From the NCBI GenBank assembly GCA_045611665.1, contig JAZKXP010000004.1, positions 1,446-65,445 of the forward strand: a DNA stretch of 64,000 bases. Direction: 5' to 3'. The notes under the pieces are model-generated. The model ran no database searches. It worked only from the letters and a program-made list of their open reading frames with translations, and was not told where the DNA came from. Below are positions 6,182 to 50,168 of the stretch, piece after piece. Made by a program: the position numbers and the translations under genes. Position 1 is the first letter of the stretch, and every line of letters begins with the position of its first letter. This stretch comes from Alphaproteobacteria bacterium. Lineage in GTDB: Bacteria > Pseudomonadota > Alphaproteobacteria > CAAHEQ01 > UBA3637.

Positions 6182-6188
6182 CATCAGC

Positions 6189-6318: not shown

Positions 6319-6332
6319 TGGGTACAAAAAAT

Positions 6333-23640: not shown

Positions 23641-23644
23641 TTTT

Positions 23645-27095: not shown

Positions 27096-27098
27096 ATA

Positions 27099-28223: not shown

Positions 28224-28226
28224 TTT

Positions 28227-29309
28227 TTACCTCAATTTTAATGTAGATAACGCTAAAATAGCCAACAAAATAGAAACAATCCAAAACCGAATAACAACTT
28301 GTGTTTCTTCCCACCCTTTTTTTTCAAAATGATGATGAATGGGTGCCATCAAAAAGACCCGCTTTTTTCTGAGCTTATAAGAACCCACTTGAATAATATC
28401 CGAAACTGCCTCCATCACAAATACACCGCCGGCAATAGCCAAGACAATTTCATGTTTTGTTGCTACGGCTAAGGCACCTAAGATACCGCCCAATGCCAAA
28501 GATCCCGTATCACCCATAAAGACTTGCGCCGGATGAGCATTAAACCACAAAAATCCCAAAACCGCACCAATGACCGCTCCACAGAAAATGGCCATTTCTC
28601 CGGCACCGGAAACGTAATGCATTTGTAAATAGCTTGTATAATCCACACGACCGACTAAATAAGCAATCACCATAAAAACCAATGTGGACATAATGACCGG
28701 TATACTGACCAATCCATCTAAACCATCCGTTAAATTAACGGCATTAGAGGTCCCAACCATGACGATTAAAGCAAACGGAATATAAAACCATCCTAAATCA
28801 ATAAACAAATCTTTAAAGAACGGAATGGTTAAAGTCGTACTCATCGGTCCGTGTTCCAAAAACATAATCCAAGCACAAGCTGCGGCGCTGACAAAAAACT
28901 GCAAAGCCAGTTTCTTTTTGCCGGAAATACCGTCACTGCTGCGTTTTGTTAATTTTAAATAATCATCTAATAATCCGGCAAATCCGAATCCGGCCATCAC
29001 AAACATCAACATCCAAACGTAAGGATTAAATAAATTGGCCCACAACAGTGCCGACACTGCAATGGAAATCAAAATCATCAATCCGCCCATTGTCGGTGTT
29101 CCTTTTTTCTTCAAATGGGTTTGAGGGCCATCTGACCGTATCGGCTGTCCTTCACCTTGTTTGCTTTTTAACCAACCTATAAATTTGGGTCCAAACAACC
29201 AACACAAGAAAAAGGCGGTAAACAAAGCTCCTCCAGCCCGAAAAGTGATGTATCTGAACACATTTAAAACGGAAATATCATTTGAAAAAAAGGATAATAA
29301 GTACAACAT
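28227..29309 (-). CDS. mraY: Phospho-N-acetylmuramoyl-pentapeptide transferase
   Basis: 360 aa with [12 protein letters not shown] and HHHFE motifs. Confidence 0.9.
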
Positions 29310-29310
29310 C

Positions 29311-32133
29311 CTAAGCGTTTCCTTTCAACTTCATTACAATTGTTTTTAGTCCTGAACCATTTGAGGCCTTGACCAGTACAACAGCCCCTTCCGGCAATTC
29401 ATTCAATAAAATATTTGCCAATATTTCAGGAGAGTCGGCATAGGCTCCTTGTCTGTCCGGCGGCAAAGAATTATATAAATGACGACACAAAATACCGGTT
29501 GCATAAACTTTATCTATGCCCGCCTCCAACAAATCTTTAACCAACCCGACATGCAAGGAAATTTCGTGTTCCCCCAATTCCAACATATCACCCAATACAG
29601 CAACTTTCACAGTTCCTTGACGCAACCCCAAAGAACGAATAGAGGCCGCCATAGAAGACGGATTTGCATTGTAGGCATCATCAATTAAAATCACCGTATT
29701 CCCATTAGGTAATTTGACAGTTTCTGCCGCCCCTCGACCGGCTATTGCCGAAGCCGTTCCTAAGGCTGTGGCCGCTTGTTCAACACTGGCACCAACGGCA
29801 TCTACCGCCGCCAAAACAGCCAAAGAATTCATGGCAAAATGTTCCCCTAAAAAGCCGATATCATATTTTAACGGCGTTCCGTGCCAATCGGCTGCTATTT
29901 TCGTTTTTTCACCAATAGCCATAGTTTCTTTTAAAACAAAATCGGCCTCTTTTTCATGTCCAAAAGACACAATCCGTCGGACACCACAGGCATAAGCTTT
30001 TTCTCTTAAAAATCCAAAAAACTCTTTATTTTCCGTATTTAAAATGGCCACACCCCCATCATTCATGGCGGTAAAGATTTCGGCTTTAGCCTCGGCAATT
30101 TGGTGGGTGCCGGAAAAATGAGCCAAATGTGCCGTACCAATCATGGTAATAATGGCTACATCCGGACGCACCAATAAAGATAACTCCGTCAATTCGCCGA
30201 CATGATTCATGCCCGTTTCAATAATGGCATATTGTGTATCCAACGGCATTTGTGTCAATGTCAGCGGAACACCAATGTGGTTATTATAATTACCGGCAGT
30301 TGCATATGTTTTTCCTTGCTCACTTAAAGCCGTTTTTAACATTTCTTTTGTTGTTGTTTTGCCCGAACTGCCCGTTACGGCAATCACCTTAGCCTCCGAG
30401 CGATTACGGGCAAATAATGCCAACCTGTTAAACGCTTGCATCACATCCGCAACAACGATTTGCTTTGCCTCCGGAACACCGTCAATCAAATGGTCAACCA
30501 AACAAGCAGCTGCCCCTTTTTGAACGGCCGTTTTAACAAAGGCATGGCCATCCATATTGTCTCCACGAATGGCAATATATAAATCTCCGATTTGTAATGT
30601 TCTGGTATCCCGTGAAATACCGAAAGCATTTGTTCCCATCGGCACCTGAGGTGATAGGGCAGCCCTTAATTCATGAGATTGCCACAATGGCATTTGTTCC
30701 ACATTCATAACGGCCAATAAAGCTTCAATTTTATCATCAAAAACATAAGAAACGCCGTTAATGATTTGGCCTGTTTCATGGCCTTTACCGGCAATAATCA
30801 ACACATCTTCAGCCGTCAAAGAATGAACCGCCGTTAAAATGGCCATACGTCGATCACCGATTTCAATTCCTTTCGGGCAAGCCGATACAATCTGCGTACG
30901 AATGTCGGCCGGATTTTCAAAACGCGGATTATCGTCCGTAATATAAACACTATCCGCTAAGCGGTTGGCAATTTCCCCCATCAAAGGTCTTTTAGCCACA
31001 TCCCGATTGCCACCACATCCGAAAACACAGACTAATCGCCCTTTTGTATGTGCACGCATGGTTGTCAAAACCCGTTCCAAAGCATCCGGCGTATGGGCAT
31101 AATCAATGTAAATTGATGCACCGTTTTTCAAAGTAGCAACACGTTCCAATCGCCCGGCCGGCGCCGAGACACAAGGAATAACCTGCATAATTTCTTCCGC
31201 ATTCATCCCCAATCCGACACACAGCCCTATGGCACATAAGATGTTCATAGCCTGAAAATCACCAACAACAGGCAAATCTATCTCATATGTTTTGCCGAAA
31301 GCGTATAGCGATACACGTTGCCCTTGTGGCAATGGTTTTTGTTCCAAAATTTTAAGTTCATCACCGTTTTTACCATAGGAAATAACGGATAATCCTTTTG
31401 ATATGACAACCTCCCGCAACCGGTTAAATTCCGGAATATCGGCATTCAAAACAACGGAACCTCCCATCTTAACCAAATCCATTAATTTGATTTTTGCCTC
31501 AAAATAAGCGGCCATTGTTTTATGGTAATCCAAATGATCTTGGGTGACATTTGTGAATGCGGCCGCCTCCAACTCAACCCCATTTAAACGCTGTTGGTCC
31601 AATCCATGGCTGGAAGCTTCCATCGCAACCGCTTGGACTCCGGTACGTTGTAACAGATTTAAATTTTGGTGCAATGTACACACATCGGGTGTTGTCATAG
31701 AACCGGATTGTTTAAACACGGGAGAATCAATTCCAATTGTTCCCATACTGGCCGTTGTCACACCTAATGCATTCATAATTTGTGCGACATAGTAAACCGT
31801 AGATGTTTTTCCGTTTGTGCCGGTAACGGCTACCTTTTTCACCCCTTGAGACGCATATAAAATTTGAGCCATACACGCCATTATTTCTCGGACATTCGGC
31901 ACAACAAAAACAGGAACGGAGGCAGAGACACTTTGTTCCGATACAACCGCAACACACCCATTTTGAATGGCCTGCGGAATAAAATTTGTCCCATCTTGCG
32001 CTTGACCTTTCACGGCACAAAATATGTTACCGGCTTTAATCGTTGCCGAATTACAGGATATACCCGTAATTTCCATATCCTCTCCGTGATAATCCAGCCC
32101 CGTCCGTTTTGTTAATTCGCTTAACATCATCAT
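29311..32133 (-). CDS. murE-murF: Fused MurE-MurF: UDP-MurNAc-tripeptide synthetase (meso-DAP adding) fused to UDP-MurNAc-pentapeptide synthetase
   Basis: A single 940-aa ORF. The N-terminal half has MurE P-loop GTNGKTST and the DAP-recognition DNPR motif ([11 protein letters not shown]). The C-terminal half has MurF P-loop [11 protein letters not shown] and [11 protein letters not shown]. No stop or frameshift lies between the halves. Confidence 0.85.
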
Positions 32134-33872
32134 CTTTTTTTCTTTTTCGCCTCTGTTGAAATATCTATTGATTTTTGTACATACGCCGGTAATTTATATT
32201 CCGTCACGGGCTGAACCCCTAAATGCGGAGCAATTCCCGCAATAATGTCCAACGCCACCGGTTTGGCATTCCATCCGGCCGTATTAAAATTCCACGTTTC
32301 TTTTATTCGTTTGGGATCTTCCAACACCACCAACACAGCGTATTTAGGCGCCGTCATCGGAAAAACACCCACAAAAGTTGTTCTGGATTTACCCTCAACA
32401 TACTTGCCGTTTTCAATCAAATTAGCCGTTCCCGTCTTACCGCCGACGGCATATTTTGTTACCGGATGATTTTTTTTCAAATCCCAATTCACCACAGCCC
32501 ACATCATCGGCCGCATTTGTTCACTTGTTTTTTGGGAAATCACCTGAATTTCCGTTTTGCCTTTATTGCCGTCTTTTAAAAAAGTCGGCACACGATAATA
32601 TCCTCCGTTTACCAAAGCAGAAACACCGGCAATTAAGTGCAACGGGGAAACAGATAATCCATAGCCAAATGCCACATTAGCAGAGGTAATATCCGCCCAT
32701 TTTTTATCTTTCGGGGGCATTAAAACACCGGCTCGTTCCGGCAGAGCAATGGGTAACGCCTTATAAAAACCGAAACGAGATAAAAATTCTTGTTGTTTTT
32801 TGTATCCGGACTTTTGAGCAATTTGCACCGTACCGATATTGGAAGAATGCATCAACACCTCCGGTACCATCAAAGGACGTTCTTGTCCACGATAATCGGT
32901 AATGCGTTTGCGGCCGATTTTTATCGGTTCCGATGTATCAAACGTATCCCACGGCGTAATATCTTTGTATTCTAAAGCCATTGCCGTATTAAATAATTTA
33001 AAAACAGACCCAAATTCATAAACCCCCAACGAGGCTTTATTAAATTGTTGTTGAGGGGTAAGCTTTAACGACAAATTCGGTGTATAGTCCGGCAAAGAGA
33101 CCATTGCCAAAACTTCCGCCGTATTAACATCCATAACGATGGCAGCGCCACCGACTGCTTTAAATTTTTCTATTCCCTTTTCGAGAGCCGTCCGAGCCGT
33201 TTCTTGCACCGACATATCAACGGACAAAATAATATCTTGTTCTTTTAATGCTGTATTATACGCTTTTTCCAATCCGGCAACACCATTACCGTCAATATCT
33301 ACGGAACCGACCAAATGAGAAAACAAATTACGTTGTGGATAAACCCGTTTTTCCCCGGGTGTTTCGGATAAAAAATAATACCCGAGCCAATTAACGGCAT
33401 TACGTTCTGCCGGTGTTAAATTCCGCTTAATATACCGAAAGGTTCCGCCACTGTTCAATTTATGCAATACCTCTTCATAAGACAAATCGGGTAATGCCTT
33501 TACAATATTGGCCGCAATTTCTTTTTTATCTCCTTTAACCATAGCCGGATTAACAGATAAATCAACGGTTGGAACGCTGGTTGCCAAAAGAGTGCCATGA
33601 CGACCCATGATATTTTTGCGTTCTAATTCAAAATCCGCTTTTAACACGCTGGGTATAAATTGACGCGGTTCATAATTCATAACCGTCAGATAGAACAAAC
33701 GCGCAACGATGACAGAAAAACAAACAGACATTACCCCTAAAATAAAACAGATACGACCGCGCGCTTTTTTGAGAGCCACCATTGTCGCCCCGTCTAAACA
33801 ACGATACTTATCCAATGCCGTTTGTTCAATTTCCTGACCGGGATAATAAAATGTTTCTTTTCGTTTAAACAT
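32130..33872 (-). CDS. ftsI: Peptidoglycan D,D-transpeptidase FtsI (PBP3)
   Basis: 580 aa with an N-terminal TM and transpeptidase motifs SVFK, SSN and KTGT. Confidence 0.85.
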   Translation of the reverse strand: MFKRKETFYYPGQEIEQTALDKYRCLDGATMVALKKARGRICFILGVMSVCFSVIVARLFYLTVMNYEPRQFIPSVLKADFELERKNIMGRHGTLLATSVPTVDLSVNPAMVKGDKKEIAANIVKALPDLSYEEVLHKLNSGGTFRYIKRNLTPAERNAVNWLGYYFLSETPGEKRVYPQRNLFSHLVGSVDIDGNGVAGLEKAYNTALKEQDIILSVDMSVQETARTALEKGIEKFKAVGGAAIVMDVNTAEVLAMVSLPDYTPNLSLKLTPQQQFNKASLGVYEFGSVFKLFNTAMALEYKDITPWDTFDTSEPIKIGRKRITDYRGQERPLMVPEVLMHSSNIGTVQIAQKSGYKKQQEFLSRFGFYKALPIALPERAGVLMPPKDKKWADITSANVAFGYGLSVSPLHLIAGVSALVNGGYYRVPTFLKDGNKGKTEIQVISQKTSEQMRPMMWAVVNWDLKKNHPVTKYAVGGKTGTANLIENGKYVEGKSRTTFVGVFPMTAPKYAVLVVLEDPKRIKETWNFNTAGWNAKPVALDIIAGIAPHLGVQPVTEYKLPAYVQKSIDISTEAKKKKR

Positions 33873-34189
33873 TACCGGTGCTCCTGTTGATGCGCCGTAT
33901 CGGATGTATTTTTTAACAGCGGAACTTGGTCGGCTTCAATAATCTGAGCCGCCTCAATTCGTTTATAATTTGTTTGTTCCGCAACCAGCGCCCTTAATCG
34001 TTCCGGATCATTTAAAGAGGCCCAATCCCCTTTCAACATGTGAATTTCACGTTTATCAAAAGCTATTTGACGGTGTAGCCGATAGAGTTGTTCTTCTTTT
34101 TCAATAACTTGATATTTCAACATAAACATTCCGACACCGGATGCTATAGCAATCACAAAACACAATAAGTTAAACCCCCACCGTTTCAT
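33872..34189 (-). CDS. ftsL: Cell division protein FtsL
   Basis: 105 aa bitopic protein with a single TM and a coiled coil; located between rsmH and ftsI. Confidence 0.6.
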   Translation of the reverse strand: MKRWGFNLLCFVIAIASGVGMFMLKYQVIEKEEQLYRLHRQIAFDKREIHMLKGDWASLNDPERLRALVAEQTNYKRIEAAQIIEADQVPLLKNTSDTAHQQEHR

Positions 34190-35112
34190 CCACCCTCCTT
34201 CGTTCTGAGAGCTGCCCGCAATTTAGCCGAATGAGCGCGCGGATTTAGAGCCAATTCCGCTTCATCTGCAACAATCGGCTTTTTTGTAATTATTTGAAAC
34301 AGTATCGGTTGACTTATCTTTTGAGGGGCATGCCGATTTTCATTCGGCCCCCGTCCGGAATGATACATCATAAAATTTTTAACTATTCTGTCTTCTAACG
34401 AATGAAAAGACACAACAACCAAACGTCCGTTCGGTTTCAATAACTTTAAAGACGCCGTCAATGCCCGTTCCAACTCGCCCAATTCATCATTAACAAAAAT
34501 CCGAAGCGCCTGAAACGTTCGCATGGCTGAATCCGATCCGTCTTTCGGACGGGGCATAACTTGATGGACAATATTGGCCAGTTGACCGGTTGTGGCAATT
34601 TCCTCTTGAGACCGCGCCCGCACAATAGCCGCCGCAATTCGGCGAGAAGCACGCTCTTCCCCATACCGAAACAAAATATCTGCCAGCTCTTTTTCCTTAA
34701 ATGTATTAACAACATCTTTAGCAGACAAGCCGGATTGAGCCATACGCATATCCAACGGTCCGTCAAACCGGAACGAAAACCCCCGTTGAGGTTCATCTAT
34801 TTGCATGGAGGATACGCCAATATCCAAGACAATCCCATCCACCGGCTCCGTGATATGATTAGCCATATTTCCAAAACAATCTTGAATAAAACGAAATCGC
34901 CCATTAAAATCTTGTTCGGTTTTTTGAGCCGTACTAACTGCACTCGGATCTCGGTCAAATCCGATAACCTCGTTTTCTTCAGAAGCATTTAAAATCGCCC
35001 GTGTATAGCCGCCGGCCCCAAATGTACCGTCAATATAAACGCCGTTTTTTCCTTGCAATAAGGTATTCAAAACAGGTTGCAATAAAACCGGAATATGCGG
35101 ACAAGTTTCCAT
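34186..35112 (-). CDS. rsmH: 16S rRNA (cytosine1402-N4)-methyltransferase RsmH (MraW)
   Basis: Motifs HIPVLL.., YIDGTFGAGGY and DLGVSS. The ORF is open to 35175, but the METCPHIPVLL start at 35112 matches RsmH N-termini. Confidence 0.85.
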   Translation of the reverse strand: METCPHIPVLLQPVLNTLLQGKNGVYIDGTFGAGGYTRAILNASEENEVIGFDRDPSAVSTAQKTEQDFNGRFRFIQDCFGNMANHITEPVDGIVLDIGVSSMQIDEPQRGFSFRFDGPLDMRMAQSGLSAKDVVNTFKEKELADILFRYGEERASRRIAAAIVRARSQEEIATTGQLANIVHQVMPRPKDGSDSAMRTFQALRIFVNDELGELERALTASLKLLKPNGRLVVVSFHSLEDRIVKNFMMYHSGRGPNENRHAPQKISQPILFQIITKKPIVADEAELALNPRAHSAKLRAALRTKEGG

Positions 35113-35242
35113 AAGACGCACCTTCTGCTGAAACAGGCATAAAACCTTAAAAAAACATATAAAAAAATATATCAAAATAAAGTTAATAAATTATTAACAA
35201 TCATTTGTTCCAAGTCGGAAAAAAAACAAAGAAACAGCCAAG

Positions 35243-38018: not shown

Positions 38019-40460
38019 TTAAGCCCGATCAATATAAGCTTGCACCAAGGCATCTGTATCATTTAATTGACGCGATAATTGTTCCGCCAACAACACATTT
38101 TTATTACCGGATGAGTATACCTTTAAGTATGGGCCCAAACCACTTAAATCAACATCCAAAATCACCGATTCATGGATAGCCGGTCGACTGACCAAAATCG
38201 CATACTTGCGGTCGGCAAATTCTTTCCCCAAAATAAAGTTCATTTCTCGAGGCGTCAAATTCCAAGTGGCATAATCAGATGGGTTTGCCTGCGGGTTTCT
38301 AAAGAAAATAACCGTTTGACATTGACCGCGAATAACATCACCCAATCCATTATCATCCAAAAACCGCGGTTGTTGGAAAGCACACAAGAAAGCTTGACGT
38401 TTTTTACGTCCTTCCCGAAGCCCGACGATAAATTGCTCTTTAAACATGGGATGCTCTAACATCGGAGCTGTTTCGTCAATCATCACCAAACTTGGCGTAC
38501 CCATCGCCGATGCTTGAACGTGAATACGGTGCATAATATAGCTGATAACAGCCGGAGCCAGAGTGGCATCCGAAAAAATGTTCGTAAAGTCAAACGCCAT
38601 ATAGCGCGATCCGCCCAAATCCAAATTATCGGTCGGTGAGTTAAAAATACGCCCATATTGATCATCATTTACCCAACGTTGTAACTCGCTCCGCATGGCG
38701 GAATTCGGAGCAAAACATGATTTATACAAATTTTTCAACAGCCGTTCTTGTGGTCGTAAATATTCAAACGCCGTCACAACCGCACGGGCGATTTCTTGCT
38801 CACTCATCGCATCGGTACAGCCGGTGATATCTCTGAGCCACGTACGCAAAAACATTCTGTTATCCGATGTATCGGGTACGGCAAAAGGATTCAAGGTAAC
38901 AGCCCCTTCTCCACCATCAAAGCGGATATATGGCGCCCCCTGCATTAAAGCAAAAACCTTTGCACCGTTATTACGATCAAAAAAGTATGTATGCAAATCG
39001 GGAATACGCAAAGATTGACCGGCCATAAACGAGAAAAAGGTTGTTTTACCTTGACCGGTCGGACCGATTAAAGCGGTATGAGCCACCGCATAAGGTTCTT
39101 CGGATACATGGAATTGGAAAGCGTAAGCCGTGCCCGTAATTGTTCTGAAATACGACAAAGGAACAGGACCCCAATCGGATTTTTGTCGTCCTTCGGCCGT
39201 TTTATCAATACAGACAGCACATGCCACAACGCGTGACAAATACATAAATGTCCGCGGATAAACTTCGTAGGTCGGAAATTGAGCGAAAAACGTTGCTTGA
39301 GCCGACCATCCGTCACGGACCGGTGTTACGTTATGTAACCGGCAAATTTTTTCCACTTCTTCCTGACCAAAATCCAGCTCTTCTTTAGAATTACCGAAAA
39401 TGAACACACTCATAGCATATTCATTTAAGGTTTGTCCGTCCGCATCGGATTGGTCCATCCATTCAAGAGCCGTATTGTATTGTTCCATAACGTTTTGAGA
39501 AAAGGTCGTCAGATAAGCCATCCGTCGTTGTTGCATCAACAAAAAGTTGGCCTTCACGTGCGGAATGGCTTTAATATTATGACAAACGGTTATTTCGCAA
39601 TCAATGCTTAAGATATCGGCAACCATTTGCTCATCCATATAATCACCGGGTTTACGAATTCCCATACAAATTGCCATTTTTTCATTTTCACCGGAAAAGA
39701 ATTTAATAATCCCTTCATCTTTCGTAAAATGAATATAATCAGAGGTCAATAACGCATTTAAATATTCCCCTTGTTCCCCATGAATAACGGGTTTAGGATT
39801 TGACAGAGGACTGAGCAATTGCGCAAACAACCAAAACGGACTTTTATCTTGATGTTTGTGCGGTGTTTTTTCGGAAATCAAAACCGGACTATACATATCC
39901 AAAATAGTCAAAAGAGAGTTAGTGGCCTGTTGCAAATCTTTCATGGCCGTTTTTCGGTCATTGATAGATAAAACAATGTAATGTTTATTACGAAAAACAC
40001 GATGCAAACTGCTGATCCACATAGAAGAAATAGTTTGCAACATCTTATCGTCTTTATACATATGTTCTTCCGTCAACGGAATTTTTTCACGAATAGTAAT
40101 AACCCGCGAAACAATTTCCAATTCAGCCATCGAGTCTACCCACCGTTTTTTTGCCTCGGCCAACTCAATCCGCTCCTCCGGCAACATTAACGTCGTATCA
40201 GCCCCTTTTAATTCAAACACACGAGCCAAAGACCCATTACGCAAGTGAATTGTGGCGCCGTCTTCATCCAACTTTGAAAAGGGCAAAAAATCGGAAACAC
40301 GCGTTTCTTTTGGTCGTGGCAAGATGATATCTCCCAACCGCGTAACAAACACAGCTATAATTAACATAGCCGCCCCAATACCAAACACGGCAACGACGGT
40401 TGACAGAGAAGTTGCTCCCTGCGCTAAAACGTCAAAAACACCCATTCCTACATCATTCAT
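38019..40460 (-). CDS. virB4: Type IV secretion system ATPase VirB4/TrbE
   Basis: 813 aa with N-terminal TM segments, Walker A LIGPTGQGKTT, Walker B LVMIDETAPM and a C-terminal ..FQQPRFL.. region typical of VirB4/TrbE/CagE. Lies directly downstream of a VirB3-like gene. Confidence 0.8.
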   Translation of the reverse strand: MNDVGMGVFDVLAQGATSLSTVVAVFGIGAAMLIIAVFVTRLGDIILPRPKETRVSDFLPFSKLDEDGATIHLRNGSLARVFELKGADTTLMLPEERIELAEAKKRWVDSMAELEIVSRVITIREKIPLTEEHMYKDDKMLQTISSMWISSLHRVFRNKHYIVLSINDRKTAMKDLQQATNSLLTILDMYSPVLISEKTPHKHQDKSPFWLFAQLLSPLSNPKPVIHGEQGEYLNALLTSDYIHFTKDEGIIKFFSGENEKMAICMGIRKPGDYMDEQMVADILSIDCEITVCHNIKAIPHVKANFLLMQQRRMAYLTTFSQNVMEQYNTALEWMDQSDADGQTLNEYAMSVFIFGNSKEELDFGQEEVEKICRLHNVTPVRDGWSAQATFFAQFPTYEVYPRTFMYLSRVVACAVCIDKTAEGRQKSDWGPVPLSYFRTITGTAYAFQFHVSEEPYAVAHTALIGPTGQGKTTFFSFMAGQSLRIPDLHTYFFDRNNGAKVFALMQGAPYIRFDGGEGAVTLNPFAVPDTSDNRMFLRTWLRDITGCTDAMSEQEIARAVVTAFEYLRPQERLLKNLYKSCFAPNSAMRSELQRWVNDDQYGRIFNSPTDNLDLGGSRYMAFDFTNIFSDATLAPAVISYIMHRIHVQASAMGTPSLVMIDETAPMLEHPMFKEQFIVGLREGRKKRQAFLCAFQQPRFLDDNGLGDVIRGQCQTVIFFRNPQANPSDYATWNLTPREMNFILGKEFADRKYAILVSRPAIHESVILDVDLSGLGPYLKVYSSGNKNVLLAEQLSRQLNDTDALVQAYIDRA

Positions 40461-40472
40461 TTTAAATCCTCA

Positions 40473-40760
40473 TCATGGAGCTAACTTATTTCCGCGTGAA
40501 TAATATATATTTTTACTGGGCGTCATCATCGGCCCAGAGGCTTTCATCATATTAGATAAGTGCGGTTCTTTTACCCCGTAAATAATAATCACTAAGTGAG
40601 CCAAACCTATCGTAGCAATAAAAAAAATCGGGTTATGATGTGTGGCAATCCACATACACAAGAAAACGGATTGAACGGTAATATTTGCAATGGACGGCAC
40701 CATAGGCGCCCAAAAAACTTTCGGCGGCATTGCAACGGCTTTTAAAATTGGTTCATGCAT
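40473..40760 (-). CDS. virB3: Type IV secretion system protein VirB3/TrbD-like
   Basis: 95 aa two-TM protein of VirB3 size and topology, 12 nt upstream of virB4. Confidence 0.6.
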   Translation of the reverse strand: MHEPILKAVAMPPKVFWAPMVPSIANITVQSVFLCMWIATHHNPIFFIATIGLAHLVIIIYGVKEPHLSNMMKASGPMMTPSKNIYYSRGNKLAP

Positions 40761-40899: not shown

Positions 40900-41406
40900 C
40901 TATTCTTTAACTCTTTCTTGATGTTGGGACAGATTAATATCTGCTTTAGCCCGACTGACACGGACAGGATTATGTTCAGACACCGATTTAGTCGGAATAC
41001 CGTTTTTTTCAGAAGAATGGGAATATTCTCCGACACAGATAAAAAACAATGCCCCAAGCGCTCCGGCAGATGAAACCATCAAAGCACATCGTTTAAATCC
41101 CCATAAAAAAGTATGAGGAGCATCATAATTTTTCCATTCTTTACTGTGCATATATTCTTTCACACGATAAGATCCGTCATCATTCAGAACAACATCATCA
41201 ACCCACATTGTATCTTTTAGTGCATACCCACGATAACTATACAAAGAACACCACGTTCCTTTATCATGTCCCACTTTAATATATTTGGGTTGTTTGGGAT
41301 TGATATCGTAAGAAGCAGCCCTCTTTTCTATTGTACGACCAGTTATTGAACGAATATTAAATGTTCCGTCCGCATTTTCGGATATATTAAAATATTTTGA
41401 TTTCAT
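40900..41406 (-). CDS. Hypothetical tail-anchored protein
   Basis: 168 aa with no signal peptide and a single C-terminal TM (ALMVSSAGALGALFFICVG). It occupies the position where virB2 would normally be but does not resemble a T-pilin. Confidence 0.35.
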   Translation of the reverse strand: MKSKYFNISENADGTFNIRSITGRTIEKRAASYDINPKQPKYIKVGHDKGTWCSLYSYRGYALKDTMWVDDVVLNDDGSYRVKEYMHSKEWKNYDAPHTFLWGFKRCALMVSSAGALGALFFICVGEYSHSSEKNGIPTKSVSEHNPVRVSRAKADINLSQHQERVKE

Positions 41407-41576: not shown

Positions 41577-41897
41577 TCAATGATAGTACGATAAACACTT
41601 ATAGGCAACGGCTTCAATTTTTGCATCATTATCATCGTTTGTTTCGACTTGCGTCACCTTCAAATAATCCGCCCCGATTTTGGCCGCTTGTTTTCTGGCT
41701 TTTTTCAACGCAACATTGGAATTCCAGCTGTATGGCGTATTAATCAAAGCAATTTCTTCATAATCACAGTCAGGTTCTTCTTTAAAAACGACTTTAACCT
41801 CCTCAGGGGTAATCGGCGCGTATGACTTAGCCACCATAATATGAGTTGAGGCACATCCGCCCATTAGAAATAAACACATAAACAAAAGACGCTTCAT
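41577..41897 (-). CDS. Lipoprotein, hypothetical
   Basis: Start refined to MKRLLFMCLFLMGGCAS (lipobox LMGGC) at 41897, with a perfect AAGGAG RBS; mature protein about 90 aa. Confidence 0.5.
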   Translation of the reverse strand: MKRLLFMCLFLMGGCASTHIMVAKSYAPITPEEVKVVFKEEPDCDYEEIALINTPYSWNSNVALKKARKQAAKIGADYLKVTQVETNDDNDAKIEAVAYKCLSYYH

Positions 41898-41955
41898 TGT
41901 TTTCTCCTTAATTTTTGTTAAAGTATATCGGCTTTTATATGTTATTTCAAGCATT

Positions 41956-42918
41956 TTATGCCGCTATTTTTAAATCTGCCGTATTTTCCCATGACAAAAC
42001 CGGTATTTCGTCCGGCACCGACAGGTGGGCTTTTGCAAACAGCGTTATCGGACGGCCGTTATTCAAACACTCACCATGTCCGACCGGCACACCAGAAAAA
42101 ACGGGGGTGTTAGGCGGAATGGTCCCAATAAATTGTTCTGCTGTTTGAAGAGGTGTATCTTGCGACAGAATAAAAGCAACCTGCCGAGAATCCCCCGAAG
42201 CCCATTTTAAACAAGCCGTTAAATCTGAAGCTCTGTCTAATTCAGACACAATAAAACAGGTTTGGTGTCGTTTTGTTACAACAAAAGACGGATGAACTTG
42301 TTCCGGTAAAATATATCCCGATAAGTTTTGGACGGCTCTGGCGGCAACATTCAACGGTTTCAGGGCGCAAGCTCCGGCAGTATCTTGATGTACATCTTCC
42401 AACAAAGCATTTAATCCGCGAGAATAATAAACCGGTGTACACACACCTAAACACCCCAAATATGATTGCAAATGTACAGCATCATCAAATCCATATACCT
42501 TTAATGTTTCCGCCCGTTTAGGCAACATGCCGAACTTATCCGTCAATCGTCTTAATTCATCAACAACGGAAAAACTTCCCATGCCGTCACTTAAATACAC
42601 GGCATTATATTTAAATCCTTTTTTATTTTTGGCACAAATCGCTTCAAATATCATTGCTGCCCGTTGTTTCGGTGAATGCGTATATTCAAATCCGTCTGCA
42701 TCATAACGCCACTTGCCACAAAAAATATTATCATCATACGGCAGTATCAAGGCAACCCGTTTACTTTGAGCCCAAAAAAATAATCGTTTTTTTTCGACGT
42801 CGTCCGAATACTGTTCCAACGGTGGTTTGGCAACGCTACACGAAGACGGAATCACCACCAGATGAGAGGTACACTCTTTTGAATAAAAAAAAGTATGTAA
42901 AAACACCGGTTGTTTCAT
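41956..42918 (-). CDS. ldcA: LD-carboxypeptidase (peptidase S66, LdcA-like)
   Basis: The C-terminal GVPVGHGECLNNGRPITLFAKAHL aligns with E. coli LdcA DFGHEQRTVTLPLGAHAIL, which carries the catalytic His. Nucleophile-region YLSDGMG parallels GHSDFT. Start refined to MKQPVF at 42918 with a GGGGGAG RBS. Confidence 0.55.
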   Translation of the reverse strand: MKQPVFLHTFFYSKECTSHLVVIPSSCSVAKPPLEQYSDDVEKKRLFFWAQSKRVALILPYDDNIFCGKWRYDADGFEYTHSPKQRAAMIFEAICAKNKKGFKYNAVYLSDGMGSFSVVDELRRLTDKFGMLPKRAETLKVYGFDDAVHLQSYLGCLGVCTPVYYSRGLNALLEDVHQDTAGACALKPLNVAARAVQNLSGYILPEQVHPSFVVTKRHQTCFIVSELDRASDLTACLKWASGDSRQVAFILSQDTPLQTAEQFIGTIPPNTPVFSGVPVGHGECLNNGRPITLFAKAHLSVPDEIPVLSWENTADLKIAA

Positions 42919-43115
42919 GCTCCCCCCTGCTAAAAAAAACAAACCCTCTGTTTTATGAAGAAGACACTCTTAAAAAGCAAATAAAAAAATCAAATATAAT
43001 ACGATAGTATACAACGCCTTAACTGTTATCATACATCAGTCAGAAAAATATCGTATTTCCCTCTTGCCTTGATGGTTAATTTATGCCACAATATGAAAAA
43101 CTTAAGGAACACGCC

Positions 43116-44276
43116 ATGGAAATTCATGAATATCAAGTTAAAAAGCTGTTTAAAAAGCAAGGACTCCCCATCTTAAAAGGGGGGGTTGCCTATACTTCCG
43201 AAGAGGCCGTTCGCGTCGCCGAATCCGTTGGCGGAACACAATGGGCTATTAAAGCTCAAATTCACGACAACAATCGATTTAAAGGTTTTTTTGTAGAAGA
43301 CGATGCCGGCTCCGGCAGTGGTTTTCGGTATGCTCAAACGTTACAGGAAGTTCAACAATTTTCTCAACAAATGTTGGGAAAAACCCTGATTACACCAACC
43401 ACTCATCATCGTGGGCATGAGGTAAAAAAGGTTTATATTGAAGAAGTTGTCGATATAAAAGAACAATTTCAAATTTCCTTAAGAATTGATGAAAACACTC
43501 AGCAACGTGTTTTGATTTTGATGCGACAAAACGGCCAACTAAAACGTTATGAACTAACCAACAAAGGGATTACCTCATTTCTGCTCCATCGTATGACAAA
43601 TCGGATGAAATTATCCGGCAAAAACGCGTCTCAGTTATCGTCTATTATTCGTCAACTGTATGATTTATTTGAACAATACAAGGCACGTGCCGTGGAATTA
43701 ACCCCCTTAATTTTAACAAAATCAGATACCTTAACCATATTGGATGGACGGATTGTATTTGACGGAGATGCTCTGTTCGCCTATCCGGATATTTTTGCAT
43801 TAAAAGAAATTGATACTGGAACCGAACGTGAACATTCGGCACAACAAAATAATTTTAAATACACCAAATTAAGCGGGAATATTGCCTGTATAGTGAACGG
43901 CACCGGCTTAGGTATGGCTACCGTTGATTTAATTACAGACAAAGGTGGTACCGTTTCGTGTTTATTGGATATTGGAACGGAACCATCTAAAGAGGTTGTG
44001 GCAAAGGCTTTTCGAATGGTATTGGGTGAGCCGGATATCGAGGGGGTTCTCGTCAATATTTTTGGCGGTATTACCCGATGTGACGTCATTGCGCAAGGGC
44101 TTATTTCGGCATCTCACGAAATATCGGTTGGTATGCCTCTGGTTGTGCGAATGGACGGAACAAATGCGGCTGTCGGATGCCGTTTATTGCAAGAATCTCA
44201 TCTGCCATTTGAATTAATTGAACGCATGGACAGTGCCGTTGAAAAAATCGTTTCTCGGGTTGAGGAGGTTGCATGA
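43116..44276 (+). CDS. Succinyl-CoA synthetase beta-subunit-like ATP-grasp protein, divergent (phosphate-binding loop not conserved)
   Basis: MEIHEYQVKKLF.. is a clear SucC homolog along its full length (CIVNGTGLGMATVD, NIFGGITRCD). The ATP-grasp Gly-rich loop VHAGGRGKAGGV is replaced by IHDNNRFKGFFVEDDAGSGSGF. Start refined to 43116 with an AAGGAA RBS. Confidence 0.7.
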   Translation: MEIHEYQVKKLFKKQGLPILKGGVAYTSEEAVRVAESVGGTQWAIKAQIHDNNRFKGFFVEDDAGSGSGFRYAQTLQEVQQFSQQMLGKTLITPTTHHRGHEVKKVYIEEVVDIKEQFQISLRIDENTQQRVLILMRQNGQLKRYELTNKGITSFLLHRMTNRMKLSGKNASQLSSIIRQLYDLFEQYKARAVELTPLILTKSDTLTILDGRIVFDGDALFAYPDIFALKEIDTGTEREHSAQQNNFKYTKLSGNIACIVNGTGLGMATVDLITDKGGTVSCLLDIGTEPSKEVVAKAFRMVLGEPDIEGVLVNIFGGITRCDVIAQGLISASHEISVGMPLVVRMDGTNAAVGCRLLQESHLPFELIERMDSAVEKIVSRVEEVA

Positions 44277-45166
44277 AATTTGTTCTGCCAAACAGTTCTA
44301 CACCTATTTTAGTTCAAGGAATTACCAGCTCGTTGGGGGCTACCCATACCGAGATGGCCATTGTTTACGGGTCCAATATCGTTGCTGGTGTTGCCCGAGA
44401 AAAAGGATTAAAAACCTTTTTAAATGTCCCTATTTTTCAAACAGTTCGAGATGCCGTGCGCAAAACAAAGCCCCAAGTCAGTATGGTTTTTTCCACTCCC
44501 ATGCGGGCCTTAGCCGACGTCACCGAAGCGGCAAAATCTAAAATCCCTCTGATTATTTGCACAACCGAACATGTTCCTTTACATGACAGATTAAAAATGA
44601 CCGAAATTGCAGAAAAATACGGCGTGCGTTTATTGGGTCCCAGCTCTCCGGGGGTGGTTAATATTGATAAATGTTTGGCCGGCACCATGCCCGCTCATTT
44701 ATTTCCCAAAGGAAATGTTGGCATTGTCTCACGGTCCAGCTCTTTAACCTACGAAGCCGTTCAACAACTGGCTCAACTAAATCTGGGGGTTTCTTCATGC
44801 GTGGCTCTTGGAACTTCTTTGGTCTTAGGAACGTCTTTCATTCCGGTTGTTCAAAGTTTTTTATCCGATTCCAAAGTCAAATCTATTTTAATTATCGGAG
44901 AATTAAACGGAAATTTTGAATGCGAACTTGCCAATTGGTATAAAAATCAAAAACGCAAAAAACCTCTTGTCGTGTACATCAGCGGAAAATCCTTTCCTCG
45001 CTCGAAAAAGCTGCCTATGGTTGGCGCCCCCCATCAAACACCAGCCGAAAGAGTGGCTCTAAAACAACAAACTTTGGAACAAGTCGGCGGTGTTGTTGTT
45101 TATTCGCCCGAATTAATTGGAAAAACCGTTGCGAAAGTAATGAAAAAGGAGACACATGACGCTTGA
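44273..45166 (+). CDS. Succinyl-CoA synthetase alpha-subunit-like CoA-binding protein, divergent (catalytic His motif absent)
   Basis: Collinear with SucD (VQGITSSLG versus QGFTGSQG; IVSRSSSLTYEA versus GIVSRSGTLTYEA; IIGELNG versus MIGEIGG). The phosphohistidine motif GKRMGHAGAII is replaced by SKKLPMVGAPH. Start overlaps the SucC-like stop by 4 nt. Confidence 0.7.
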   Translation: MKFVLPNSSTPILVQGITSSLGATHTEMAIVYGSNIVAGVAREKGLKTFLNVPIFQTVRDAVRKTKPQVSMVFSTPMRALADVTEAAKSKIPLIICTTEHVPLHDRLKMTEIAEKYGVRLLGPSSPGVVNIDKCLAGTMPAHLFPKGNVGIVSRSSSLTYEAVQQLAQLNLGVSSCVALGTSLVLGTSFIPVVQSFLSDSKVKSILIIGELNGNFECELANWYKNQKRKKPLVVYISGKSFPRSKKLPMVGAPHQTPAERVALKQQTLEQVGGVVVYSPELIGKTVAKVMKKETHDA

Positions 45167-45686
45167 CGAATTGATTATGACACGGGTTTCCCATGATTTA
45201 GCCGGTATCATCGGTGCTTTGTATAATACCGCCGAATTATTGGAAATTGATCCGGCATTCGCTACCGAATCCGGCGGCATAATTAAAACAAGCACCGGCA
45301 CATTAATGGCCAGATTAAAATTTTTCCGTGCCATCTTTGGTACAGACGGCGCCCCGCTGAACACTCAAATTGTTCAAGAGTATCTCAACACGCTTTCCGC
45401 TGCATTCACCCTTAACGGAACAATAGACACACGCCGACAAGCCGTTGCCGTATTAATTTGTGCCGACACAATGATACGGGGCGGAAAAATCGATTTAACA
45501 AACCATTCCGTCACAGGGATAGGCCAAATCAAAATCGATGAGGCATTTCACCTTGCCCTATCGGGAACGCTGGATAGTATTCCACCAAAATTGGCTCCGG
45601 TTGCTTGGCTGGTAAATCACAATAAAATTCATCATCTGTCCATATCAGCCGATATAGATACCGATTGTATTACCCTGTGTTTTTAA
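45156..45686 (+). CDS. chpT: ChpT-like histidine phosphotransferase
   Basis: 176 aa. LIMTRVSHDLAGIIGALYNTAELLE matches Caulobacter ChpT LAARLCHDFISPASAIVSGLDLLE, which carries the phospho-accepting His. LKFFRAIFG matches LQFTRVAFG. Start overlaps the SucD-like gene by 11 nt. Confidence 0.65.
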   Translation: MTLDELIMTRVSHDLAGIIGALYNTAELLEIDPAFATESGGIIKTSTGTLMARLKFFRAIFGTDGAPLNTQIVQEYLNTLSAAFTLNGTIDTRRQAVAVLICADTMIRGGKIDLTNHSVTGIGQIKIDEAFHLALSGTLDSIPPKLAPVAWLVNHNKIHHLSISADIDTDCITLCF

Positions 45687-45895: not shown

Positions 45896-45957
45896 TTCCA
45901 GCCACTTTGTATCAAGGTGGCTTTTGTTTTAATGTAATGAACAAGAAAGGGATTTTT

Positions 45958-46383
45958 ATGACTACGAAAAAGCTTGACTCCGGTCGGTCTATGCTGGAAA
46001 TGCTTGGAACTCTCGCTATTATCGGCGTTCTGTCTGTTGGGGCGATAGCGGGATACAGTTACGGTATGGATAAATATCGGGCAAATCAAACAATTAATGA
46101 TGTGATGTTAAGGGCTGTCGATATTATCACCTATACCAACCGAGGTATAGACCCGAATACAGTCTGATGGCCGACAACAACCCCCGTCGGATATCCAACC
46201 TCTTTTGTACCGGATGAAAACAATGTCTATGGTATCCAAGTTCAAAATGTTCCCGCTCGAGTATGTAAAATGGTTGGTGATGATTCTGCTAATGTGTGTT
46301 ATGCATATATTGTCAGTCTCAATACAGGGCATATATACTTTTATGAACGCACAGATGGTAAAGCTTTTGCTATTTATAAGTAA
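45958..46383 (+). pseudogene. Type IV pilin / pseudopilin-like gene interrupted by an in-frame TGA at 46165..46167
   Basis: MTTKKLDSG|RSMLEMLGTLAIIGVLSVGAIAGY is a class III (prepilin) signal with Glu at +5 and a hydrophobic alpha-1 helix. After the TGA the same frame continues for 71 codons (WPTTTPVGYPTSF..ARVCKMVGDDSANVCYAYIV..AIYK*) and contains the Cys..Cys pair of a pilin C-terminal disulfide loop. Confidence 0.55.
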
Positions 46384-46434
46384 ATCAAAAAAGCAGGTAT
46401 TTATAATTATATCTGCCTTATTTCCACAAAAAAA

Positions 46435-46939: not shown

Positions 46940-47227
46940 ATGGCTTTTAATGAAGAAACGGTCGCAAATGTAGCCAATTTGGCTCGTTTGAATTTAACCG
47001 ATGAACAAAAACAAAAATTCGCCGGTGAAGTGGACGGCATTTTAAATTGGGTTGAACAATTGCAAGAAGTTAATGTGGACGGTGTTGAACCGCTCATTTC
47101 TGTTACGGAACAAACCGAAGCTATTCGGTCCGATATTGTCACAGATGGCAACATTCAAGCCGATTTAATAAAAAATGCGCCGGAATCCGCTCACGGATTT
47201 TATGTTGTTCCCAAAATGGTGGAGTAA
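46940..47227 (+). CDS. gatC: Asp/Glu-tRNA(Asn/Gln) amidotransferase subunit C
   Basis: 95 aa; ..VANVANLARLNLTDEQ.. is the canonical GatC N-terminus, and an AAAGGAG RBS precedes it. Confidence 0.85.
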   Translation: MAFNEETVANVANLARLNLTDEQKQKFAGEVDGILNWVEQLQEVNVDGVEPLISVTEQTEAIRSDIVTDGNIQADLIKNAPESAHGFYVVPKMVE

Positions 47228-47230
47228 AAA

Positions 47231-48712
47231 ATGACAGATTTAATTAACTTACATATTTCTGAAGCTGCCGATTTATTGGCCAAAAAAGAAATTTCTTCCG
47301 TAGAATTAACTAAAGCTCATTTGGCCGAAATGGAAAAAGGCCGTGTTTTAAACGCCTTTATTACAGAAACGCCGGAACGTGCTTTGTCAGATGCTGAGGC
47401 CTCTGACAAACGCCGTGCCAATGGGGAAAGTTTAGGCGCTTTGGATGGCATTCCAATTGCCAACAAAGATTTGTATTGCACAAAAGATGTTCGTACAACA
47501 GCGGCCAGCAAGATTTTATCCAAATTTGTGCCGACCTATGAATCAACGGTTACTCAAAACTTAAAAGATGCCGGTACGGTTATGCTGGGTAAAGTCAATA
47601 CCGACCAATTCGCTATGGGCGGTTCCACCAGAACCAGTTATTTTGGTGAATCCAAAAACCCATGGACAGATGCAACTGGCGAATACGCCTTAACACCTGG
47701 TGGTTCCTCCGGTGGTTCTGCTGCCGCGGTTGCCGCTGGTTTGTGTATGGGCGCAACGGGTTCTGATACGGGTGGTTCCATTCGTCAACCAGCCTCTTTC
47801 TGTGGTATCACTGGCATTAAACCAACGTATGGTCGTTGCTCTCGTTGGGGTATTGTGGCATTTGCATCCTCTTTAGATCAAGCCGGCCCAATGGCTCGCA
47901 GCGTTAAAGATTGCGCTATTATGTTGGAATCTATGGCCGGATACGACAAAAAAGATTCAACATCCGTTAACACACCGGTACCAAATTATGTATCCGCTTT
48001 AACAGGTGATATTCGTGGTAAAAAAATCGGTGTGCCAAAAGAATACCGTATGGATGGTATGAATGAAGATGTTGCTAAAGTTTGGGACAAAGGTATCCAA
48101 TTTTTAAAAGATGCCGGTGCTGAAATTGTTGAGATTTCCATGCCACATACAAAATACGCTTTGCCGGTTTATTACATCATTGCTTGTGCCGAAGCATCCT
48201 CTAACCTGTCCCGCTATGATGGCGTCCGTTATACAACACGTGTAGAAGGGGCTACATTAGATGATATGTACAAAAACACACGGACAGATGGCTTTGGTGA
48301 TGAAGTTATTCGCCGTATTTTGTTAGGTACTTTTGTGTTGTCTGCTGGTTTCTATGACGCATATTACACACGCGCTCAACGTGTTCGTCGTTTGATTGCC
48401 GAAGACTTTAAAAAGGCTTTTGAAACAGTTGATGCTATCGTGGCTCCAGCCGCTCCAACACCAGCTTTAAGCTTTGCTGATATGGCCAATATGGATCCTG
48501 TTTCCACATACTTGGGCGATGTCTTTACAACACCAAGCTCTTTGGCTGGCGTTCCAGCAATAGCTTTACCGGTTGGTATGAGCTCAAACGGATTGCCTAT
48601 TGGCTTACAAATTATCGGAAAACACTTTGATGAAAACACGGTGTTCCAAGTGGCAGATGTGATGGAAAAATCTGCTGGGTTTAACTTAATGCCACATCGT
48701 GTGAAAGGATAA
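47231..48712 (+). CDS. gatA: Glutamyl-tRNA(Gln) amidotransferase subunit A
   Basis: 493 aa with the amidase signature [14 protein letters not shown] and the Ser-cisSer-Lys triad context. Confidence 0.95.
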
Positions 48713-48716
48713 GATT

Positions 48717-50168
48717 ATGTATACAATTAAAGGAAATACAAGCGATTGGGAATTAGTTATCGGTTTGGAAGTACACTGCCAAATCATCTCTAAAGCAAAA
48801 GTTTTCTCTGGTGCCAGTGCTGAATTTGGGGCCGAACAAAACACTCATGTGTCTTTGGTAGATGCTGCTTTCCCCGGTATGTTGCCGGTTTTAAATGAAG
48901 AATGTATCCGTCAATCCGTTAAAACAGGGTTGGGATTAAATGCTAAAATCAACAAGTATTCTCGTTTTGACCGCAAAAACTACTTCTATGCCGATTTACC
49001 GCAAGGGTATCAAATTTCCCAACTTTATTACCCGATTGTCGGCGAAGGCTTTATTGAAGTTCATACATCAGAGGGCGACAGAAAAATCGGTGTGGAACGA
49101 TTGCACTTAGAACAAGATGCCGGTAAATCCATTCACGATATGCACCCATCTAAATCGTTTATTGACTTGAACCGTTCGGGTGTCGGGTTAATGGAAATCG
49201 TGTCAAAACCGGATATGCGTTCTCCGGAAGAAGCCGGCGAATACTTGCGTCAGTTGCGTGCCATTGTGCGTGCTTTGGGGACTTGCGACGGTAATATGGA
49301 TGAAGGCTCTATGCGTTGCGATGTGAACGTATCTGTTCGCAAAGTCGGTGAAACAATTTTGCGTGATCGTGTTGAGGTTAAAAACGTCAACTCCGTACGT
49401 TTCGTCATGCAAGCCATTGAAATTGAAGCCAATCGTCAAGTGGAAGTATACGAAAACGGTGGCACGGTACGCCAAGAAACACGCCTGTTTGACCCGAACA
49501 ATGGGGAAACGCGTCCAATGCGTAGTAAAGAAAATGCTCACGACTATCGTTATTTCCCGGATCCAGACTTGTTGCCCGTTATTTTAACGGATGAATACAT
49601 TGAAGAAATTCGTGCCAGCTTACCTGAATTGCCGGAAGCTAAGAAAAAACGCTATGTGTCTGAACTAGGGCTTACCGACTATGACGCTCATGTGCTGACA
49701 TTGGATGTAGAAACATCTCGTTATTTTGAAGAAGCCATGGTTGGTCAAGACCCGAAAAAAGTTGCTAACTGGGTTATGGGTGATTTGTTCGGATATTTGA
49801 ATAAGAATGGCTTAACGGTTTCAAACAGCCCTGTTTCCGCTAAAAATCTTGGCGCTTTGGTGGGCTTGATTGCCGATGGGACAATCTCCGGTAAAATTGC
49901 CAAAGACGTCTTTGAAATTATGGCCGAAACCGGTAAAGAACCTGCCGTTATTGTTGAAGAAAAAGGATTAAAACAAGAATCCGATACAGGTGCTATTGAA
50001 AAATTGATTGAGGAAATTTTATCTGCTAACCAAGATAAAGTTACCGAAATCAAGGCCGGTAAAGACAAATTAAAAGGTTGGTTTGTGGGGCAAATTATGA
50101 AGGCCTCAGGCGGTAAAGTCAATCCGGCCCTCGCCAATCAATTATTGGATAAAAAATTGGCCGAATAA
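48717..50168 (+). CDS. gatB: Asp/Glu-tRNA(Asn/Gln) amidotransferase subunit B
   Basis: 483 aa. N-terminal [13 protein letters not shown] is the canonical GatB start; C-terminal YqeY-like domain. Confidence 0.95.

Follow-up and report, generated by a model that had tools for sequence, protein, structure and literature searches.

A succinyl-CoA synthetase-derived pseudoenzyme pair encoded with a compact ChpT-family phosphotransferase in uncultured gut Alphaproteobacteria: a possible accessory of the CtrA phosphorelay

Why should two genes that resemble those of succinyl-coenzyme A (succinyl-CoA) synthetase, and that have lost the motifs of its active sites, lie directly in front of a gene for a ChpT-like histidine phosphotransferase? 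The question is raised by positions 43116 to 45686 of a 64-kb stretch of DNA (64,000 nucleotides of contig JAZKXP010000004.1, assembly GCA_045611665.1; here called the window) from an Alphaproteobacteria bacterium. A preliminary description, made from the sequence alone, had proposed that these three genes encode a degenerate SucC/SucD-like pair and ChpT, and that the pair might be a pseudoenzyme module feeding succinyl-CoA or tricarboxylic acid (TCA) cycle status into the cell-cycle phosphorelay. The three open reading frames (ORFs) and the signals around them are listed below (nt, nucleotides; aa, amino acids).

43116..44276, + strand: SucC-like gene (ORF1), 386 aa, with the Pfam domains ATP-grasp_2 and Ligase_CoA
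44273..45166, + strand: SucD-like gene (ORF2), 297 aa, with the Pfam domains CoA_binding and Succ_CoA_lig
45156..45686, + strand: compact ChpT-family histidine phosphotransferase gene (ORF3), 176 aa, assigned by sequence and fold matches
43104..43109, + strand: Shine-Dalgarno-like AAGGAA, 6 nt 5' of the ORF1 ATG, read from the sequence
45146..45151, + strand: strong Shine-Dalgarno sequence AAGGAG, lying inside ORF2 at its 3' end with 4 nt to the ChpT ATG, read from the sequence
45900..45922, + strand: terminator-like hairpin with a T-run, 214 nt past the ChpT stop, from a consensus scan

The SucC-like and SucD-like genes overlap by 4 nt (ATGA) and the SucD-like and ChpT-like genes by 11 nt, as first described; the term 'translationally fused' used in that description does not hold, as the genes overlap and are not fused. 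They are probably translationally coupled, and the three genes form one operon, sucC*-sucD*-chpT, where the asterisks mark the genes of the inactive pair. An alternative start for ORF1 exists at an upstream ATG at 43083. The start at 43116 is favoured because homologues begin at an equivalent MEIHEYQ, and the upstream ATG is probably not used. The gene upstream of the trio is divergently oriented and has no assigned function. At the other end, the hairpin at 45900-45922 is the sole terminator-like hairpin after ORF3 and overlaps the start of the next small ORF; it is a possible, weakly indicated operon end. In the promoter and terminator consensus scans the number of terminators was not clearly above that in shuffled controls and only one hairpin was informative. 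Scans of the 64-kb window for Rfam families and tRNAs found neither.

Could the pair still be succinyl-CoA synthetase? Both proteins match the corresponding NCBIfam models over their full length but fall below the cut-offs (SucC, 341.7 bits against 370; SucD, 264.8 bits against 336). Alignments to solved succinyl-CoA synthetases (6mel_A for the SucD-like protein; 6mel_B and 1jkj_B for the SucC-like protein) are full-length and collinear, with E values of 1e-62 to 1e-66, and together with the Pfam domains they confirm that the two proteins are collinear, full-length homologues of SucC and SucD. The AlphaFold2 (AF2) model of the SucD-like protein has a mean confidence (pLDDT) of 92 and matches succinyl-CoA synthetase alpha chains in Foldseek with template-modelling (TM) scores of 0.87-0.89. 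Confidence is low only at residues 241-256, which form the former His loop.

The catalytic features tell a different story from the overall fold. In the SucD-like protein the canonical K-R-M-G-H-A-G-A lies opposite K-K-L-P-M-V-G-A, and the catalytic histidine (His246 in E. coli) is replaced by Met249. We know of no member of this enzyme superfamily in which the phosphohistidine is not obligatory. In the SucC-like protein the Gly-rich loop of the ATP-grasp fold, H-A-G-G-R-G-x-G-G-G, lies opposite HDNNRFKGFFVEDDAGSGSG, a longer segment with a 10-residue insertion. The CoA site of the SucD-like protein is altered throughout: QGFTGxxG has become QGITSSLG, TPG has become ARE, VP has become ST, ITEG has become TTEH and NC has become SS. 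The three losses that the preliminary description had read from the letters, namely the phosphohistidine motif, the Gly-rich loop and the CoA-binding motif, are thus borne out by alignment. The equivalent of Glu208-alpha is Glu210 in the window protein (IIGELNG), and this position is K, Q, D or E across the family. The C-terminal CoA-ligase domain of the window SucC-like protein is well conserved and carries LDIGTEP where canonical proteins have LDVGGGA.

The low SucC and SucD scores are not a genome-wide effect, because other housekeeping proteins of the window clear their NCBIfam cut-offs (Pgm, 801 bits against 378; RadA, 567 against 403; AccA, 452 against 357; FtsZ, 407 against 295; Ddl, 364 against 243; and FtsA likewise). 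Fast evolution of the whole genome is therefore excluded as their cause. Because the phosphohistidine, the nucleotide Gly-loop and the CoA contacts are lost and the Glu208-alpha equivalent is unconserved, the succinyl-CoA synthetase reaction should no longer be possible. Judged from its sequence, the pair is a pseudoenzyme descended from succinyl-CoA synthetase, and its subunits very probably still assemble into an alpha/beta dimer.

The same losses are found across a family. A search of 5.8 billion proteins with ORF2 gave 1153 hits, of which the best 120 were examined. These are 48-100% identical to ORF2 and come from metagenome-assembled genomes (MAGs) mostly labelled Alphaproteobacteria, and GHAGA is missing from all 120 of them, the window protein having P-M-V-G-A at this place. 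Some family members have been named 'succinate--CoA ligase subunit alpha' by the NCBI pipeline. Among the GTDB species representatives scanned with the SucD-like family, 25 genomes encode the His-less type (45-83% identity), every one an uncultured 'Alphaproteobacteria bacterium' MAG from the gut of ruminants, other animals or humans. Canonical SucD proteins of other phyla found in the same scan (35-40% identity) served as the reference set. A SucC-like gene lies directly upstream of the SucD-like gene at every His-less locus.

The position of the catalytic histidine is L, V, F, I or M in all 26 aligned family members. In beta, the Gly-loop is replaced, with an insertion, in 25 of 25 aligned members, and the equivalents of E107 and Y109 are lost too. 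Of the canonical columns with a conservation of 90% or more, the family retains 53 of 120 in alpha and 59 of 159 in beta, and GIGGDP, TPG, VP, ITEG and NC are all altered family-wide in alpha. New motifs have become invariant instead: PAHLFPKG, RSSSL and GPSSPG in alpha, and LDVGTEP in place of LDVGGGA in beta. Within the family, identity is 0.41 in the beta ATP-grasp domain and 0.65 in the beta C-terminal domain. In alpha it is about 0.6 for the N- and C-terminal domains and 0.28 for the former His loop and the C-terminal tail. Conservation is strongest in the alpha subunit and in the C-terminal domain of beta, which together make up the alpha/beta interface and what was active site I. We conclude that the nucleotide domain is drifting and that the region around the former site I is held under what is probably a new constraint.

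The ratio of non-synonymous to synonymous substitution rates (dN/dS) takes values of 0.04-0.12 in the SucC-like gene and 0.04-0.07 in its SucD-like neighbour; the ChpT-like gene has 0.11-0.17. Pairs with dS of 0.5-1.1 give the cleanest of these figures. Selection on the pair is clearly purifying. Pseudogene decay is excluded by these values for the pair and by ORFs that are intact in more than 25 species. A neighbour-joining tree built from the concatenated SucC-like and SucD-like sequences groups the family into one monophyletic clade with a long stem. Taken together, these sequence data make it very likely that the pair is without succinyl-CoA synthetase activity and under selection.

Is ORF3 really a ChpT? 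The protein has no match in Pfam. It matches Brucella ChpT (4qpj) with E=1.6e-6 as a single sequence and with E=9e-10 as a profile of 29 sequences. The AF2 model (pLDDT 94) is built as a two-helix DHp-like hairpin (helices 3-31 and 33-61) followed by a CA-like alpha/beta domain. When this model was compared with the PDB using Foldseek, the top seven folds were all ChpT (4qpj, 4qpk, 4fmt and 4fpp), with TM scores of 0.74-0.80, in contrast with 0.46 or below for true histidine kinases. His13 (TRVSHDLAG, in the motif T-R-x-S-H-D-L) is invariant in alignments of 29 and of 28 relatives and the motif lines up with that of Brucella ChpT; His13 is the predicted phospho-accepting residue. A profile search of 1.84 billion representatives found 1458 relatives, which grade continuously from a short type of 175-184 aa to proteins of 195-225 aa that match HPTransfase (PF10090). 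Both close and distant relatives match PF10090, although the window protein does not do so directly. None of the best 150 ChpT-family representatives exceeds 238 aa, and no SucD-ChpT fusion protein is among them. ORF3 is thus a ChpT-family protein of a divergent compact subfamily, as the Brucella ChpT match and the fold matches of the model indicate. The catalytic histidine and the Gly-loop of the pair are not conserved and the third ORF does match ChpT, so on both points on which the first identification could have failed it stands.

ChpT serves as the phosphotransferase in the CckA-ChpT-CtrA relay, and the gene neighbourhood links the pair to the CtrA network more than once. The chpT gene lies directly downstream of the dead pair in 12 of the 25 GTDB species representatives, with an overlap of 1-14 nt or a gap of at most 10 nt. 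Five further short-type ChpT subfamilies, whose context was initially unknown, all proved to lie tightly downstream of SucC-like and SucD-like genes. Many database hits for the SucD-like and ChpT-like proteins also agree exactly in the length of their longest contig, a weak hint of a shared contig. On the tree the chpT-linked members include the earliest branches (L029 and L030; L numbers denote the loci fetched from related genomes) and three other subclades. This suggests that the linkage to chpT is ancestral and was later lost at least twice.

In 7 of the 25 species, which form a subclade with no adjacent chpT, an orthologue of divK immediately precedes the SucC-like gene in the same orientation, with a 4-nt overlap or a gap of 8-19 nt. 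The DivK-like protein is a single-domain receiver of 121 aa. In the PDB it matches Caulobacter DivK best (1m5t, E=3.8e-40, 139 bits), compared with 73 bits for the next match. The usual partner gene of divK in Caulobacter is pleD. The coordinates of divK, on the strand of the SucC-like gene, are as follows.

L010, 1711-2076: divK
L011, 1573-1938: divK
L012, 6509-6874: divK
L015, 8479-8847: divK
L017, 1628-2035: divK
L021, 921-1445: divK
L026, 3755-4345: divK

The ctrA gene was found at L029 and L067 (364 and 366 bits against an NCBIfam equivalog cut-off of 350). At L029 it abuts chpT, tail to tail; at L067 it lies 3.4 kb downstream, past ileS. GcrA is encoded at L061. Within the 64-kb window itself there is no ctrA, GcrA or DivK. 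A histidine kinase encoded in the window at 58163-59599 was considered as CckA and rejected, as it is PhoR-like. A more canonical ChpT of 202 aa (P0404), from another gut alphaproteobacterium (L065/L066), has no linkage to SucCD-like genes. The 286-aa ORF that precedes P0404 was considered as a further-degraded SucD and ruled out (hhalign probability 0.4%).

From this gene context we propose that, in a clade of uncultured gut Alphaproteobacteria, the dead pair serves the DivK/ChpT/CtrA phosphorelay as an accessory peculiar to that lineage, and we give this reading a rough probability of 0.5. Chance is hard to accept, because chpT and divK share operons with the pair in different subclades and ctrA adjoins it in an early branch. 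In a genome of 1500-2000 genes with about ten core CtrA-pathway genes, a second independent adjacency to the CtrA network would arise by chance with a probability of about 1%, by our rough estimate. The dead pair would be made stoichiometrically with ChpT or, in one subclade, with DivK. It would form a heterodimer and would bind these relay proteins directly, or bind a small ligand in the remodelled pocket of site I, and either mode would tune the flow of phosphate to CtrA. Less probably, the pair itself would take part in phosphoryl transfer. The proposal of a pseudoenzyme module acting on the phosphorelay is strengthened by the conserved family, by purifying selection and by the context of chpT, divK and ctrA. 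The specific role in sensing succinyl-CoA or the TCA cycle that had been suggested for it finds no support, since the CoA, His and nucleotide sites have all changed.

Several observations weigh against an accessory role in the phosphorelay. Neither chpT nor divK adjoins the pair in 5 of the 25 species (L020, L022, L023, L027 and L028; the L013 locus is too short to judge), so that the trio seen in the window, which recurs in about half of its relatives, is not universal among them. ORF3 scores far below the NCBIfam ChpT cut-offs (32.6 bits against 240 and 20.9 against 225; E=5e-8). We did not see cckA in any of the fetched loci, and no genome-wide search for it was made. When positions conserved only in the chpT-linked SucCD-like members were sought, the differences were few and conservative, with no extra constraint in comparison with unlinked members. 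The genomes are compact, unrelated housekeeping genes in them often overlap, and ileS, rho, gatCAB, cdaA and gap are recurrent neighbours of the pair as well. Finally, the remodelled pocket might just as well be used for some new function, enzymatic or in binding, that has no relation to the relay.

This last point has a tentative explanation of its own, which we consider possible and rather doubtful: the pair may be a neofunctionalised enzyme or small-molecule binder that uses the remodelled alpha/beta pocket for a purpose unrelated to the phosphorelay, its adjacency to relay genes reflecting inherited gene order and co-expression with growth genes. The clustering of PAHLFPKG, RSSS and GTEP at the position of site I fits a new binding or catalytic site, and the five species that have no relay gene beside the pair, the lack of linkage-specific sequence constraint in the SucCD-like proteins and the recurrence of ileS, rho, gatCAB, cdaA and gap are all readily accommodated. 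What is harder to accommodate is that chpT and divK, which belong to one network, entered the pair's operon independently in different subclades, that ctrA abuts the operon in an early-branching member, that every short-type ChpT with an examined context lies downstream of the pair, and that our estimate for a second such adjacency by chance is so low. A working succinyl-CoA synthetase (or related acyl-CoA synthetase) of odd sequence, or a pair of decaying pseudogenes, is far less credible, and we regard either as very improbable. The proteins are full-length and collinear, the genes keep the normal beta-alpha order with overlapping stop and start, and the NCBI pipeline applies the 'succinate--CoA ligase subunit alpha' label to some members, all of which would suit an enzyme. 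Yet every member examined has a hydrophobic residue where the phosphohistidine should be, the Gly-loop and CoA contacts are gone as well, and both subunits fall under equivalog cut-offs that the window's housekeeping proteins pass. Decay is refuted by the intact ORFs and the low dN/dS given above.

It is also conceivable, and in our judgement improbable, that the pair takes part in direct phosphoryl chemistry, the emptied phosphohistidine pocket receiving the phospho-His of ChpT or the phospho-Asp of DivK and the pair serving as a phosphate sink, a phosphatase cofactor or an alternative phosphodonor. In the version to which we give similarly little credence, phosphate would be drained or supplied when a metabolite binds, and CtrA would receive a metabolic input that bypasses or supplements CckA. 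In succinyl-CoA synthetase the N-termini of two helices bind the phosphoryl group. Both are strongly conserved in the family in altered form, with SRSGT of alpha changed to an invariant RSSS and NGAGLAM of beta changed to NG[ST]GLG, and this would suit such a role. So would the pair's own His loop, which is its least conserved segment (0.28 identity, low pLDDT), and the nature of the partners, which carry phospho-His (ChpT) and phospho-Asp (DivK). However, the equivalent of Glu208-alpha, which supports the phosphohistidine at site I, is unconserved, the eroded ATP-grasp nucleotide site makes ATP-driven phosphorylation unlikely, and among the best 150 ChpT-family representatives there are no fusion proteins or other direct hints.

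How does this arrangement compare with known systems? The pair is like SucCD (E. coli 1jkj and 2scu; Campylobacter jejuni 6mel) in its beta-then-alpha gene order, its overlapping stop and start and its domain architecture. It differs in having a hydrophobic residue in place of His246-alpha, an unconserved Glu208-alpha equivalent, a replaced Gly-loop and altered CoA motifs, and in being in an operon with chpT or divK instead of mdh/sucAB. Domains are also shared with the nucleoside diphosphate-forming acyl-CoA synthetases, namely malate-CoA ligase MtkAB, citryl-CoA synthetase, ATP-citrate lyase, ADP-forming acetyl-CoA synthetase and FdrA, all of which match the pair less well than SucCD does. 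These enzymes use a phosphohistidine mechanism, in contrast with the pair, which has no phosphohistidine, and none of them explains its link to the phosphorelay.

ORF3 resembles ChpT of Caulobacter (CC_3470; 4fmt and 4fpp) and Brucella (4qpj and 4qpk) in its H-D-L hairpin and degenerate CA-like domain, and ctrA is found near short-type chpT in related genomes. Unlike the usual ChpT of 200-225 aa, it has 176 aa, lacks an N-terminal extension and is too divergent for the PF10090 model, and in every examined context the short-type gene either overlaps the 3' end of a SucD-like gene or lies directly against it.

Metabolic enzymes have been connected with this pathway in Caulobacter, where the oxidoreductase-like KidO acts negatively on the pathway that activates CtrA, GdhZ regulates division, and CitA, a citrate synthase, exerts a control over CtrA that does not depend on its catalysis (PMC7083601). 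The pair shares with these three proteins a fold from central metabolism, and CitA is, like the pair's ancestor, a Krebs-cycle enzyme. The fold and ancestry themselves are different, and the role proposed for the pair comes from operon context. CitA is still an active enzyme, whereas the pair is without catalytic residues family-wide. KidO, GdhZ and CitA were found genetically and have not been reported in operons with chpT or divK, so that the operon linkage of the pair sets it apart.

Some further neighbours of the pair and of the trio deserve mention. In one subclade the SucC-like gene is immediately preceded, in the same orientation and at a distance of about 11-35 nt, by cdaA, which encodes a diadenylate cyclase. 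The resulting gene order is cdaA-sucC*-sucD*-chpT. At L058 the cdaA product scores 210 bits on TIGR00159 (cut-off 189). Since cdaA encodes a second-messenger synthase, it is a third signalling-type neighbour of the dead pair. Its coordinates, on the strand of the SucC-like gene, are as follows.

L058, 5070-5972: cdaA
L059, 1054-1956: cdaA
L060, 748-1650: cdaA
L061, 5070-5951: cdaA
L068, 5058-5963: cdaA

A gene for pyruvate:ferredoxin oxidoreductase (about 1170 aa) is found beside the dead pair at L021 (5590-9102, recognized from the N-terminal sequence only) and at L068 (8808-12317). This indicates an anaerobic, fermentative metabolism, and a complete oxidative TCA cycle may be absent. The top Foldseek match of the SucD-like model is 9a6e_B, from an integrative model of a GatB-SucD complex. 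The gatCAB genes lie at 46940-50168 in the window, 1.25 kb downstream of the trio, and gatCA lies beside divK-sucC*D* at L012 (4286-6066). The match and the proximity of gatCAB may be coincidence or conserved synteny.

Three conserved ORFs (41956-42942, 41577-41954 and 40900-41406, all on the - strand) diverge from the trio on its upstream side. They recur at L002 and L006, and neither Pfam nor NCBIfam gave a match for them. A small membrane ORF (40473-40760, - strand) and, beside it, a gene for a VirB4/CagE-type type IV secretion ATPase of 813 aa (38019-40460, - strand) lie about 2.6 kb upstream of the trio, PF03135 being matched in the identical gene at L002. No other type IV secretion genes were recognized near it. 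Further away, the window carries an ordinary dcw cluster (19183-33872, - strand), with ddl, ftsQ, ftsA and ftsZ annotated at 19183-23640 and mraW annotated at 34186-35175; the intervening mur-type genes are assigned by size and position.

Downstream of the trio, a prepilin-like ORF with the N-terminus GRSMLEMLGTLAIIGVLS differs between the window, where it spans 45907-46421 (86 aa), and a near-identical strain, where it spans 1973-3040 of L001 (353 aa). The 330 bp at 46092-46421 of the window and the 934 bp at 2107-3040 of L001 are non-homologous, and nucleotide identity between the two falls from 98.9% to 91.3% across this point. The pattern suggests either a variable pilin cassette or a recombination breakpoint. 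At L004 there are three tandem genes for proteins with the mTERF domain (PF02536; 15606-18752) and one for an ankyrin-repeat protein (5929-7059), recognized from faint Pfam hits only, and both features recur at L005. The mTERF family is typical of eukaryotic organelles. Bacteria seldom have such proteins, which suggests a life in association with a host or with protists.

In full-text literature searches we found no paper that links ChpT with succinyl-CoA synthetase and none that describes a succinyl-CoA synthetase pseudoenzyme, and searches on ChpT gene neighbourhoods gave nothing describing chpT beside a SucCD-like pair. The coupling of metabolism to CtrA in the alphaproteobacteria is only partly understood, and its known couplers, KidO, GdhZ and CitA, all came from genetic work in Caulobacter. 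The present genome comparisons point to an entire family derived from a Krebs-cycle enzyme, its catalytic residues lost, that occurs repeatedly in operons with chpT, divK and ctrA. The 'succinate--CoA ligase' labels carried by some family members would mislead metabolic reconstructions of these gut bacteria. Should the pair turn out to be a phosphoryl-transfer partner, it would be a type of phosphorelay component not previously described. If the link to the phosphorelay is functional, the pair would be, as far as our literature searches show, the first pseudoenzyme derived from succinyl-CoA synthetase, and a signalling pathway that has been studied very closely would gain a new accessory. The proteins of the pair, being small and soluble, would allow the idea to be tested in vitro although their hosts are uncultured.

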